Shown here: positions 59,768 through 64,000 of the stretch, piece after piece
Numbering within the stretch: the first letter of the stretch is position 1
How the letters are laid out: every line of letters starts with the position of its first letter
DNA from: Armatimonadota bacterium
GTDB lineage: Bacteria > Armatimonadota > SYMT01
DNA length: 64,000 nt
Assembly: GCA_046292385.1 (NCBI GenBank)
Contig: JBKBRF010000002.1
Coordinates: 1-64,000 of the forward strand
Direction: 5' to 3'
The notes under the pieces: model-generated
Databases searched by the model: none
What the model saw: only the letters and a program-made list of their open reading frames with translations
What the model was told of the DNA's origin: nothing
Program-made: the position numbers and the translations under genes

Positions 59768-59937
59768 CACGCCGGTGCGGTAGAGTGGTGAGCTTTGCGT
59801 GAGGCGCGGACGCCGTATCCCGCGCCTCACGCAGCGCATGTCGAGCGACCTCTCCGAAAGCTTCCGCCGCCACGTCTGCCAGACCTCGCACTCTCCGCTC
59901 GGCCTGCAAGTCGTCTCCGCGCGCGGCGCTACCCTGC
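59768..59937 (+). pseudogene. Copy 1 of the aminotransferase leader plus first ~33 codons
   Basis: 59838-59937 matches 63211-63310 with 7 substitutions. Confidence 0.92.
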
Positions 59938-60033
59938 TCTCGCTGCTCTACTGCACGCGCGGGGGTCTCGACGTGCGTCCGGACGTCGCCTTCAGCGTCA
60001 AGCGGCCGGAACATCAGCGGGCGGTGCAGCGGG

Positions 60034-61023
60034 CTATTCCCGACGCTCCGGGCGGCCTGCCGAGACGGTCTGCAGGGAAGGGGCCGGTGACTCGGCAGCG
60101 GCGGCGGTGACGACCGGGCGACTGTCGAGGGCTGCCAGCTCCTCGCGGGCGGCGGCCAGGCGGACCGCCTCGGTAGCGACATCCCGCGCCGAACCGGCTA
60201 GCTCCGCAAACCCCGCGGCATCGAGCGTCTGCGTGTGCAGCGCCATCAGTCCTTCCCGCATGGCGGTGATCTGCGCTTCGATCTCGCTGCGCAGCGCCGT
60301 GGCGCGACGGAACATCAGGGCAGAGTGCTCGTGAGTCTGGGCGCTGTAGAGAAGGGCGCGGGCGCGGCGCTCGAGCGACTCCGCGGTGACGCGGTCCGGC
60401 TCTGTCGCCGCCTGCTGCTCCAGCGCCCGTGCCTCCTCCCGCAGCGCGGTGGTATCGAGCGGCGTCGTCTCAATCGGCGGCAGTCGCTCGATCGCCGCGG
60501 CCAGGCTGCCCAGCGCCTCCCGCACGTTCTGCTCGGCGGCTGCGGGTCCCTGCTGGCGAACCGCGTCGCGCACCAGCTCGAGAAAGCGGCGCTCCATCGA
60601 CCCCGTGGTCTTCTCCAACAGCCGGTCCACCTCTTCGGCGGCGAGCGGCGCTTCGAGCAGCCGGCGGAAACGCGCCCGCGCCCAGCCGATGCCGATCGAC
60701 GCGAACGTGAGACCCACGGTCCCCACGTAGAGCGGGAGGAGCGCGGCCGGCGCGTGCATCGGGATCATGAGCACGATGGAGCCGAGGACCGACACCGGAA
60801 TGGCGGGAAGCAGCGGGACAAACCAGTTGCTGATCGCTTGCCGGGCCGCTGGAACGAGGGCGGCGGCGCTGCTCTCGTCCAGATCCATTCCCTCGCTGCA
60901 GAAGCGGCCGACGACGCCGAGGTGCGGCGCCGGCGCCTCCGCGCCCACCTTCTCGGCCGAGTCACGGGCCAGCAGGAACCGCACGTGCCAGGCGAGCCCC
61001 AGATCCTTCGGAACGATGCGCAT
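60034..61023 (-). CDS. Hypothetical 2-TM + coiled-coil protein (cargo 1)
   Basis: 329 aa ORF, AGAGGT RBS, two hydrophobic helices then a long Ala/Glu/Arg helical region. Confidence 0.75.
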   Translation of the reverse strand: MRIVPKDLGLAWHVRFLLARDSAEKVGAEAPAPHLGVVGRFCSEGMDLDESSAAALVPAARQAISNWFVPLLPAIPVSVLGSIVLMIPMHAPAALLPLYVGTVGLTFASIGIGWARARFRRLLEAPLAAEEVDRLLEKTTGSMERRFLELVRDAVRQQGPAAAEQNVREALGSLAAAIERLPPIETTPLDTTALREEARALEQQAATEPDRVTAESLERRARALLYSAQTHEHSALMFRRATALRSEIEAQITAMREGLMALHTQTLDAAGFAELAGSARDVATEAVRLAAAREELAALDSRPVVTAAAAESPAPSLQTVSAGRPERRE

Positions 61024-61150
61024 CGAAGACCTCTAACGCCTCCCATCTCTATCTAGGCACATGCATGGGAGCTATTCCTCCGCGAAGCTACGCACGATGT
61101 CCCGCGAGCGCTCCAATGCCGCTTAACGCGCAGAGTGCCACGCGACCCCT

Positions 61151-61375
61151 CGGCTCGCGGCGCGATCCTGCCACGGGGTAGCGGCCCCGGGTCCGGTCCC
61201 GCGTCACGGCGGGTGGGCGCCCGTGCGCGGGGAGCCACGCCGGCGCGGTGGGGTGTTAAGCTTTGCGTGAGGCGCGGCCGCCGTCCCCCGCGCCTCACGC
61301 TGCGCATGTCGAGTGATCTCTCCGAAAGCTTCCGCCGGTACGTCTGCCAGACCTCGGACTCTCCGATCAGGCTGC
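61151..61375 (+). pseudogene. Copy 2 of the aminotransferase upstream region, leader and first ~23 codons
   Basis: Matches 63056-63280; ATG at 61306. Confidence 0.92.
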
Positions 61376-61403
61376 GCGGTGCGCGAGGAAGTAAGCGACA
61401 TAC

Positions 61404-62204
61404 TTAAACCCCGCTGGCACCTCGCTGCGTCAACTCCCGTTCCGCAGCACCGATCGCGATGAACTCGAAGGCCGTTGCGTAGTAGGTCTCCAGTTCATCA
61501 AGCACACGAGCATCTGTGCCGGCATCTGCCTGCTCTCTCACCCAGTTGGCGAAGATGCGCATGAGCGCTGCCGTATCGGTGCTGTTCATCAGTTCGCTGG
61601 CCAGGAGCAGGTAGTTCCAGTTGAACTGCTCCGAATCTTCCCTGGGTCGGAATTGCCGACGCGTGCAGAACTGCGTGTAATCACTTCGGAAGGCGCCGGG
61701 ACGCCTGGGCCTACCCCACAAGACGCTCTGCCATACCACCGCGCCGTCGTAGATTGGAATGAGCCGCGGGTTGAAGAAGTGAAGGAACTTCGCTACAGCC
61801 ATGTGGGGATATCGGGTGGTCTGCTTCAGGCTCCGCAGTAGCCTCAAGCACCCGAGGACCCTCGCCTCGTCGCGGGGAGGACGCGCGCTCAGCAGGGTCA
61901 TACTGGAGCGTGACACCGGTCCACAAGCACTCACAAGCGTCTGATAGACCGTAGCCGAATCCCAGTAGCCACCTCCCGGATTACGGAACACGCCCCAGTA
62001 GCTCCGCAGTTCCTCATAGATGAGGTCGAACGCCTGGACCCGCTGCTGTTCCCCCAAGTTGGAGTCGAAAGCGTCCTTGGCAAAAGCGTACAGGGCCAGC
62101 TTTCGCGGGATCGGCCAGTTCAACCGGTCTGTAGAGGTAGCGGCCGCGTACGCGTCGAGCGCCACGCTGACGTTTTCAGGGCGGAAATAGTCTTGAAGTG
62201 ACAC
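61404..62204 (-). CDS. Hypothetical protein with HhH DNA-glycosylase-like motif (cargo 2)
   Basis: AVAKFLHFFNPRLIPIYDGAV; GGAGAG RBS and GTG start; lower GC. Confidence 0.6.
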   Translation of the reverse strand: MSLQDYFRPENVSVALDAYAAATSTDRLNWPIPRKLALYAFAKDAFDSNLGEQQRVQAFDLIYEELRSYWGVFRNPGGGYWDSATVYQTLVSACGPVSRSSMTLLSARPPRDEARVLGCLRLLRSLKQTTRYPHMAVAKFLHFFNPRLIPIYDGAVVWQSVLWGRPRRPGAFRSDYTQFCTRRQFRPREDSEQFNWNYLLLASELMNSTDTAALMRIFANWVREQADAGTDARVLDELETYYATAFEFIAIGAAERELTQRGASGV

Positions 62205-62728: not shown

Positions 62729-62775
62729 GGGGGGTCCTCTTGAATGAACGGGTGCTCTACCTTCAGCACAAGCAG

Positions 62776-62820
62776 AGGATAGCGTATTGTTTAAGGGCCG
62801 TCAAGAATTCTTAAACAATA
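62776..62820 (-). promoter_or_regulatory. Sigma70 promoter overlapped by an 11-bp inverted-repeat operator
   Basis: Minus strand TTGACG (62804-62799), 17 nt, TATCCT (62781-62776); TATTGTTTAAG-N14-CTTAAACAATA at 62785-62820. Confidence 0.8.
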
Positions 62821-63169
62821 GCGCTCATACGACGAAGGCTTTGACGAACGCAGCCTGAGAGGGTCTGCAGGTTAATCGTGCTGCGGGTCGGAGAGCCTCT
62901 ACCCAAAGTGCGGGAAAGAATCCGAAGGCGCTGGCACCAAGACATGCCGATGGCCACCGCTCGGCCCATTAAGGCAACTCACACAACCCGCGTGCCTAGA
63001 TCGCGCTGACGCTCCTGTTTGATGAGGCCGAGGAGGTTCTCTCCAGCCGATCCGCCGGGTTCGCGGAGCGATCCTGCCACCGGGTAGCGGCCCCGGTCCG
63101 GTCCCGCGTCACGGCGGGCCGCCGCCCGCGCGCGGGGAGCCACGCCGGCGCGGCGGGGTGTTAAGCTTT

Positions 63170-63205
63170 GCGTGAGGCGCGGCCGCCGTCCCCCGCGCCT
63201 CACGC
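63170..63205 (+). promoter_or_regulatory. 13-bp leader hairpin 5 nt before the aminotransferase ATG, after a TGTTAAGCT extended -10-like motif
   Basis: GCGTGAGGCGCGG-N10-CCGCGCCTCACGC; stem identical in all three copies. Confidence 0.65.
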
Positions 63206-63210
63206 TGCGC

Positions 63211-64000
63211 ATGTCGAGTGATCTCTCCGAAAGCTTCCGCCGCCACGTCTGCCAGACCTCGGACTCTCCGATCGGTCTGCAGGTCGTCTCCGCGCGCGGG
63301 GCTACCCTGCGGACCTCCGACGGGCGGGAGTGGATCGACTTCCTCGCCGGGATCGGCGTCAACAACGTGGGGCACGCGCACCCGGCGGTCGTGGCGGCGA
63401 TCCAGGAGCAGGCGGGCCGCTACCTCCACGCGATGGTCTACGGGGAGTACGTGCTGGAGCCGCAGGTCCGGCTGGCGGAGCTTCTGGCGAAGGTCGCGCC
63501 GCCGGGGCTCTCCGTCGCCTACTTCACCAACAGCGGCACGGAGGCGAACGAGGGCGCGCTGAAGCTGGCGAAGAAGGCGACCGGCCGCCGCAAGCTGGTC
63601 GCGTTCCGGAACAGCTACCACGGCGATACGCACGGCTCGCTCTCGGTGACCGGCCGCGACGTCTACCGGAACCCGTTCCTCCCGCTGCTGCCGGAAGTAG
63701 AGCTGCTGCCGTTCGGCGACGGGGCGGCGCTGGGGCGAATCGATGAGACGGTTGCCGGCGTCATCACGGAGCCGATCCAGGGAGAAGGCGGGGTGCGGGT
63801 GCCGCCCGACGGCTGGCTGCCGGCGCTGCGGCGGCGCTGCACGGAGGCGGGCGCGCTGCTGATCTTCGACGAGGTGCAGACCGGTCTCGGCCGCACCGGG
63901 CGGCTCTGGGCGGGAGAGCACTGGGGCGTGGCGCCCGATATCCTGGTCCTGGCGAAGGCGCTGGGGGGCGGGATGCCGCTCGGCGCCTTCCTCGGCGCGC
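63211..64000 (+). CDS. Class-III PLP aminotransferase (acetylornithine aminotransferase-like), runs off the window end
   Basis: My translation: IDFLAGIGVNNVGHAHP, NSGTEANEGALK, SYHG, EPIQGEGG, FDEVQTGLGRTG, LAKALGGGMP; absent from the ORF track because there is no stop in the window. Confidence 0.93.
   Translation, partial: MSSDLSESFRRHVCQTSDSPIGLQVVSARGATLRTSDGREWIDFLAGIGVNNVGHAHPAVVAAIQEQAGRYLHAMVYGEYVLEPQVRLAELLAKVAPPGLSVAYFTNSGTEANEGALKLAKKATGRRKLVAFRNSYHGDTHGSLSVTGRDVYRNPFLPLLPEVELLPFGDGAALGRIDETVAGVITEPIQGEGGVRVPPDGWLPALRRRCTEAGALLIFDEVQTGLGRTGRLWAGEHWGVAPDILVLAKALGGGMPLGAFLGA

Follow-up and report, generated by a model that had tools for sequence, protein, structure and literature searches.

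How does a housekeeping gene come to stand behind two broken-off copies of its own start, each followed by unrelated genes, and still be intact itself? The question is raised by the right-hand end of the window, as the whole 64,000-nt stretch analysed here is called (positions 1 to 64,000 of contig C2, JBKBRF010000002.1, of the Armatimonadota genome GCA_046292385.1, referred to as G000, a metagenome-assembled draft of 91 contigs). The gene in question is a class-III aminotransferase (AT). The answer ranked first here, and offered tentatively, is that the locus is a sequential-displacement array, built by homology-anchored recombination with one illegitimate join, for which no dedicated recombinase would be needed.

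What does the locus look like? The AT leader and 5' end are present in three direct-orientation copies, at 59768-59937 (copy 1), 61152-61375 (copy 2) and from 63058 (copy 3, the live one), an arrangement described in the initial annotation and recovered by BLAST, a repeat search and MAFFT alike. With 63056-63310 as a BLAST query against its own genome, the matches beyond the query itself are copy 2 (94%, E 1e-94), copy 1 (90%, E 5e-61) and a fourth, truncated copy that can now be added, on another contig (C7:90673-90863, minus strand, 81% identity, E 7.5e-44); the other 39 among the 43 matches listed are short, with E values of at least 0.003. A tblastn search of the same genome with the AT protein finds only these N-terminal fragments and four distant full-length paralogues. 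Copy 1 (plus strand) consists of a displaced 70-nt leader and the first 100 nt of coding sequence, is 90% identical to 63141-63310 and is the most divergent local allele. Copy 2 (plus strand) holds 153 nt of displaced upstream block and leader with the first 70 nt of coding sequence, 94.2% identical over 224 nt to 63058-63280. Copy 3 (63058-63310, plus strand, delimited by BLAST and MAFFT) comprises the live upstream block, the leader and the first 100 nt of the intact gene, which encodes 404 aa (Pfam Aminotran_3, E 6e-77), occupies 63211-64000 on the plus strand and ends beyond the window at C2:64425. Relative to their ATG codons (59838, 61306 and 63211 for copies 1 to 3), copy 1 extends from -70 to +100 and copy 2 from -153 to +70, while the C7 copy spans -91 to +101. 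The stumps do break at different points, as first claimed, with breaks at +70, +100 and +101 and no second example of the same junction; copies 1 and 3 are identical over the 10 nt at the +91 to +100 edge. It also holds that copy 1 abuts the gene to its left: the stop codon (TAG, 59765-59767) of an alpha/beta hydrolase gene of 288 aa (58901-59767, plus strand; Pfam Peptidase_S9 E 1.5e-16, DLH E 5.7e-11) is followed on the next base by copy 1. Copies 2 and 3 indeed share upstream DNA that copy 1 lacks, but its length is 83 nt and not the 90-100 bp or so estimated before.

The leader itself contains a hairpin, detected as an inverted repeat and by folding (63170-63205, plus strand), with a 13-bp stem and a 10-nt loop, which ends 5 nt before the ATG. 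The same 13-bp stem is found at 59797-59833 and 61265-61300, and the C7 copy retains the hairpin with a 9-bp stem and a 6-nt loop. Its presence in all four copies suggests a function in AT expression. The fold of the AT-start repeat has a z score of -1.7; no Rfam match better than E 0.5 was obtained, and there is no tRNA between 50 and 64 kb. On C7, three accessory genes, of 107, 309 and 144 aa, come after the stray AT start on its own strand (C7:88641-90863, minus strand). The 144-aa protein contains ankyrin repeats, no copy of the 309-aa gene turned up in the seven other genomes of the order, and there is no AT gene near this stump.

Are the copies the debris of a local duplication or alleles that once worked? 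Copy 1 differs from the live gene at five synonymous and two non-synonymous codons among 33, the same counts that had led the initial annotation to regard it as a once-functional allele, and copy 2 differs by one synonymous and two non-synonymous codon changes. When five repeat pairs are pooled (the two AT pairs and three from analogous loci described below), synonymous changes account for 27 of 39 changed codons, the expected share being 25.5% (binomial P ~1e-8; the changes in the C3 pair were counted by eye). This bias implies that the members of each pair evolved under selection in separate lineages before they were joined. Site by site, copy 1 carries the odd allele at 13 positions spread over -62 to +61, copy 2 at three and copy 3 at one, and the longest identical runs are 88 nt between copies 2 and 3 and 39 nt between copies 1 and 3. 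Read from these substitutions, the AT-start copies are diverged functional alleles and not a decayed local duplication. A displacement array is expected to hold horizontally acquired, diverged alleles, which the synonymous bias indicates here; the donors themselves were not observed.

Could the arrangement be an artefact of assembly or a purely local event? A chimera of strain variants would be a natural suspicion in a metagenome draft of 91 contigs in which the public contigs break in every shared core, so that for the order of the pieces one depends on the original assembly. Each stump, though, is joined to unique DNA. Contigs of run X1 bridge four junctions (copy 1/unit 1, unit 1/copy 2, copy 2/unit 2 and unit 2/copy 3, where the units are the stretches between the copies); X1 is the probable source run and hence not independent. 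A 444-nt contig from another study (X2; 61312-61755) bridges copy 2/unit 2 with 0 differences. Variants of the copy 1 type are found to the left and to the right of its core, and this speaks against a chimeric join at that point. The other local route, a tandem duplication in situ followed by decay, runs against the synonymous bias, which rules out decay, and against the lack of relation between unit 1 and unit 2. Taken as one alternative, artefact or local event is highly improbable. In two soil runs, X3 and X4, the hydrolase, unit 1 and AT are covered at 95-99% and depth is zero over 61607-62941; overall depth there is only 2-10x and the gap is not bridged. In X1, a depth of 80 on the contig with unit 2, where neighbouring contigs have 49-61, was considered as a sign of extra copies and set aside, as depth tracks GC over all eight pieces.

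The long identical runs bring in another possibility. Small circles carrying cargo together with the AT leader and 5' end might integrate by a RecA-dependent single crossover of the Campbell type within the 170-250 bp that they share with the chromosome, and might leave again through recombination of the copies on their two sides. Such a route makes a recombinase unnecessary and duplicates the whole shared segment, as observed, and the runs of 88 nt (copies 2/3) and 39 nt (copies 1/3) are long enough for RecA. A segment inherited by related circles would also explain why two breaks fall at +100 and +101. With the 88-nt run shared by copies 2 and 3, an integrated unit 2 and a circle alongside an empty site would look alike in the public contigs. 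The route has its price: the odd allele of copy 1 over -62 to +61 forces the first crossover into the last 39 nt, which is mildly awkward, the origin of the first circle needs another mechanism, and the C7 copy lies outside any AT locus. No circle junction was seen, in data that could not have shown one, and nothing in them reveals the discrete small circular units that the initial annotation had taken as the integrating agents. Circles are judged an unlikely explanation.

What do the units carry? Behind the truncated copies, open reading frames (ORFs) lie on the opposite strand: unit 1 (interior 59938-61151, GC 0.707) has one gene of 329 aa (60034-61023, minus strand), and unit 2 (interior 61376-63057, GC 0.605) has two, of 266 aa (61404-62204, minus) and 156 aa (62258-62728, minus), in a window whose overall GC is 0.699. 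None of the three proteins matches Pfam (E <= 0.01) or PADLOC. The 329-aa gene has orthologues in four of the seven other genomes of the order (80% in G002 and 47% in G005), none of them adjoining AT. Given these orthologues and its host-like GC of 0.71, this gene appears native to the lineage and is doubtful as foreign cargo. Unit 2, at GC 0.61, looks foreign. The claim that unrelated opposite-strand cargo follows each stump therefore survives as regards strand and the lack of relation between units, and falters where unit 1 was meant to be foreign. The 266-aa protein belongs to a rare family with 15 other members and is found at nine loci in genomes of Armatimonadota, Planctomycetota and Bryobacterales, where its gene is often alone and of low GC. 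At six of these nine loci flanking repeats were looked for and none was found, and the 156-aa partner is missing at all nine. For the 266-aa protein, the atlas look-alikes DUF6308 and HI_0787_N are leads only. The 156-aa protein is an orphan: the search recovered only itself, with one weak match each in NCBIfam and PHROGs (E 0.19 and 0.089). By sequence match, a sigma-70-like promoter precedes its gene (62804-62776, minus strand). A perfect 9-bp inverted repeat (62787-62795 and 62810-62818; TTGTTTAAG and CTTAAACAA, 14-nt spacer) overlaps this promoter-like site, and the repeat at 62787-62818 looks like an operator.

Is there a recombinase that could have built the array? Six-frame searches of the genome give 18 matches to PF00589 and two to PF00239, none of them on C2:1-64000, and no Pfam recombinase match was found among the three array proteins. 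Pfam searches of 34 further window ORFs, picked with a purpose-made filter on GC at third codon positions (GC3) under which small genes may be missed, gave neither recombinase nor transposase. The families found among them include PSCyt1/2, PSD1 and DUF1501, which are typical of Planctomycetota. The initial annotation was thus right that no integrase or transposase is present in the window. Nor was a recombinase found next to any of the four AT-start copies, the nearest one to the C7 copy on that contig being ~80 kb away. A scan of 20 recombinase loci gave clear adjacent flanking repeats at two, exact direct repeats of 48 and 59 bp. The label "recombinase-free" given to the array agrees with these results and is unproven, as an integrase could still act in trans. 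An integron cassette array was considered and rejected: there is no integrase, the repeat is a gene start and not attC, the genes of the units run on the opposite strand, and unit 2 brings a promoter-like site of its own.

An integrase in trans, or one since lost, is central to the strongest competitor of sequential displacement. Here, site-specific islets would carry the AT leader and 5' end within their attP, integrate at about +70 to +100, restore the gene and accrete in the manner of cis-mobilizable elements (CIMEs). Long imperfect repeats of a target gene's end, differing mostly at synonymous sites, are a known signature of integration into coding genes, and the array, with its flanking direct repeats from the target gene's end (170 nt at 90%, 224 nt at 94%), has this feature of gene-rebuilding elements. 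It also resembles CIMEs in that attL- and attR-like ends are kept while integration and transfer genes are missing. But where is the element to which it would belong? The AT segment has only four copies in the genome, none near a recombinase, so the cognate element that would define a CIME was not found in this genome, a negative that does not extend to the wider population, and the two recombinase loci with clear adjacent repeats have exact repeats and not diverged ones. It is also odd that remnants survive while the rest of the supposed element is gone. A scan of metagenome contigs with a 20-nt pattern from the conserved AT start gave no related element: all six loci hit were chance matches with no AT homology.

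Is the AT array alone in its genome? Two self-comparisons were made. In the first, 128 direct pairs of at least 90 bp were kept and 20 viewed in context; in the second, there were 68 pairs of 40-400 bp, 23 of them low-copy, of which 10 were viewed in context, with C2:152376 left out. Beyond the AT array, five loci have a low-copy, imperfect duplication of 74-189 bp of a gene's 3' region around a small unit with toxin-antitoxin or defence genes. On C10, 113 bp (90%) of a gene for a UvrA-like ATPase surround cargo genes of 97 and 194 aa, and on C3, 123 bp (92%) of an aldo/keto reductase gene surround an 86-aa gene and a PIN gene. The largest, 5.6 kb, is on C14 (64599-70154), a low-GC islet between copies of the last 189 bp (94%) of a short-chain dehydrogenase gene, with methylase-like, PRTase-CE (PF24390) and ORC-CDC6-like (PF24389) genes and a 321-aa gene. 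On C21, a 75-bp internal segment (93%) of a UPF0047 gene flanks Phd and PIN, and on C75, 74 bp (98.6%) of a DUF1553 gene flank AbiEi and AbiEii. Each of the five repeats has only its two copies genome-wide, and in four of these five three-prime cases the homology ends 0-3 nt past the stop codon. The scan for further duplications of gene 5' ends around cargo that the initial annotation had proposed thus meets five loci, all at 3' regions and none at a 5' end. The other pairs viewed fall among tandem paralogues, internal repeats and dispersed families of 24-107 copies; seven pairs of the first comparison (C35, C44, two on C6, C28, C58 and C40) were dropped as members of such dispersed families.

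Seven units at six loci, then, and no recombinase in any of them by Pfam, all 18 + 2 recombinase genes being distant. No further genomic copy of any of the six target segments exists, hence no resident matching attP. No motif is common to the units, and the DNA behind the breaks of copy 1, copy 2 and the C7 copy is no more similar than shuffled controls. Several trans-acting integrases would be required by islets at six target genes without a common motif. Hairpins at the break points were also considered and discarded: perfect stems at eight boundaries attain 4-5 bp at best, and a stem of 5 bp is attained at 68% of 3000 positions drawn at random from the genome. Given these frequencies at random positions, a 10-bp imperfect inverted repeat in which both AT break points lie was not counted as evidence. 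Not every small unit is framed by a duplication. One was seen at four of the nine toxin-antitoxin loci examined, the other five being without it, and none flanks an insertion at C7:92800-95340 (GC 0.48-0.60), where a GmrSD_N + HNH gene splits a response regulator from its histidine kinase. In the window itself, a PIN-domain homologue (35040-35402, minus strand; 38% to the C21 PIN) lies between peptidase M16 and PMT-like genes, also with no flanking duplication.

How would sequential displacement produce such a locus? DNA from a related strain, with a different upstream neighbour and its own AT leader and 5' end, would have recombined with the resident AT two times, one after the other. One of the two joins would be a homologous crossover of the ordinary kind within AT, downstream of about +70/+100; the other would be illegitimate, or use very short homology, and fall within the first 70-100 nt of the resident gene. 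The incoming leader and start would keep AT intact, and the resident leader and start, with anything upstream, would be retained and shifted upstream as a stump. The order of events would be hydrolase|AT first, then the haplotype with the 329-aa gene (join at +100), then the haplotype with the 266- and 156-aa genes (join at +70). Observed are the structure, the copies' status as alleles, the lack of a recombinase and further cases at other genes; enzymology, order and donors are inferences. What do relatives say about this order? The family consists of seven genomes in six genera and synteny is not conserved. The AT start DNA is matched once each in five of the six other genomes, and AT orthologues in three relatives are 77-81% identical. 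Upstream of AT, two of these three have queG, which in G000 sits on C57, and none has the hydrolase. The empty site that the initial annotation hoped to see, with the hydrolase directly before AT, is therefore absent from the three relatives examined.

Several observations speak for sequential displacement. Two stumps and a live copy are present, with a different unit behind each stump; the alleles have diverged and were functional, and copy 1 stands apart over its full length. No recombinase is found in the seven units at six loci, each repeat has no genomic copies but its own, and no motif unites the units. The fit is strengthened by the different look of the two recombinase loci with clear repeats (exact, 48 and 59 bp). 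That a duplication is optional (four of nine toxin-antitoxin loci, none at the GmrSD islet) is expected if it is a by-product of where the second join falls. Likewise, a native gene of host-like GC in unit 1 fits an exchange of haplotypes between relatives better than a dedicated mobile element.

Other observations weigh against displacement, and some of them are what the islets explain best. The AT breaks cluster at +70, +100 and +101 in a gene of 1215 nt, two of them 1 nt apart and with unrelated DNA behind, while random illegitimate joins should scatter. In all seven units the genes are whole and spare DNA amounts to only 16-300 nt, as in compact cassettes, and random ends should often cut genes. 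The arrest of homology 0-3 nt past the stop codon in four of five three-prime cases is the classic look of gene-end rebuilding. The C7 stump, far from any AT gene, needs an extra rearrangement, and a donor haplotype was not observed directly. The clustering of breaks, the whole-gene units and the limits at stop codons fit a defined, site-preferring element better than displacement. The islets are thus possible, and less probable than sequential displacement. By the allele pattern, the first-event crossover has room only within the final 39 nt of the 170 nt shared, which is compatible with all three routes. Displacement, islets and circles are not separable with the data at hand.

Which known systems come closest? 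Rhs C-terminal displacement and the orphan modules of contact-dependent inhibition (CDI) are sequential displacement arrays, the kind of structure that the AT array would resemble if displacement is right. Two accounts (PMC5361080, PMC2884548) explain the displacement arrays of type VI secretion systems (T6SS), Rhs and CDI by homology-facilitated illegitimate recombination. Like the effector-immunity arrays of Vibrio cholerae T6SS, as the former describes them (PMC5361080), the AT array has serial horizontal modules on the conserved part of a gene, shifts the old ends and has no integrase. Polymorphic-toxin arrays are anchored on a toxin gene's conserved 5' body, and toxin tips at the 3' end are displaced together with immunity genes. 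In the AT array, by contrast, the anchor is the body of a housekeeping aminotransferase, leader and 5' ends are displaced, growth is upstream and the cargo is not immunity genes. The AT array works like a Rhs/CDI/T6SS displacement array and is not a member of that group, because its anchor is a class-III aminotransferase and its units carry unrelated genes. The same genome may hold a classic displacement array at C4:74091-77418, where two adjacent minus-strand ORFs, Rhs/YD-repeat-like by eye, have a common repeat of 665 bp (88%, with 126 bp at 98%).

The islets have their own precedents. Prophages such as phage 21 and e14, which sit in the 3' end of icd, duplicate more than 100 bp of the gene end, with mainly synonymous differences and homology that stops at the stop codon. 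The loci on C10, C3, C14 and C75 resemble this type of duplication, phage 21/e14 being prophages with their own integrase. At the 5' end of a gene the comparison is with SXT/R391, and Hochhut and Waldor are said to have reported in 1999 that the SXT element supplies a new promoter and start. SXT/R391 elements occupy the 5' end of prfC, where they give rise to tandem arrays (PMC5812530). In target, the 5' end of a housekeeping protein gene, and in tandem arrangement they are therefore like the AT array (PMC5812530), and anchoring on a protein-gene 5' end, which the initial annotation had presented as new, has this precedent. In size and equipment they differ: SXT/R391 are ~100 kb with their own tyrosine integrase and conjugation genes, and the units of the array, of 1.2-1.7 kb, carry one or two genes and lack a recombinase. 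The description of CIMEs (PMC5704250) has attL and attR kept without integration genes and tandem accretion, which makes them, with SXT/R391 (PMC5812530), the precedents for islets. CIMEs are defined relative to a cognate integrative and conjugative or integrative and mobilizable element, whose integrase moves them; none was found for the array, and here six target genes are involved.

What would follow from the scars? A general process, in which small toxin-antitoxin or defence cassettes move without a recombinase by means of a 70-250 bp allele of a housekeeping gene end, as circles or linear DNA and through the homologous recombination of the host, with the gene restored and its former end left as a stump, is doubtful as the data stand. 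If true, housekeeping gene ends, 5' as well as 3', would be reusable docking sites on which arrays are built, and the clustered breaks (+70, +100, +101) and the stray C7 stump would be traces of a lineage of units. If instead an integrase acts in trans, this is a routine case of decayed or satellite islets. The entry of very small accessory cassettes into chromosomes with no mobility gene is poorly documented, and here seven units at six loci carry a readable scar, the diverged end of a neighbouring gene, with one locus hit twice at its promoter-bearing 5' end. Should the route be shown, these loci would serve in Planctomycetota-like bacteria as a natural assay of gene gain by homology anchoring, and as a marker for islets elsewhere. 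What gives the set its value is the seven scars and the 5' end hit twice, and not proof of a new mechanism.

Two further features lie to the left of the array. Copies of a dispersed repeat with at least 24 copies genome-wide flank a transglutaminase-like gene (56274-56472 and ~58740-58870), and run depth peaks about 8-fold at both. Between them, a 165-aa protein that looks secreted and is very rich in glycine and proline is encoded at 56485-56982 (minus strand), with a weak Pfam match to GRP (E 0.008).

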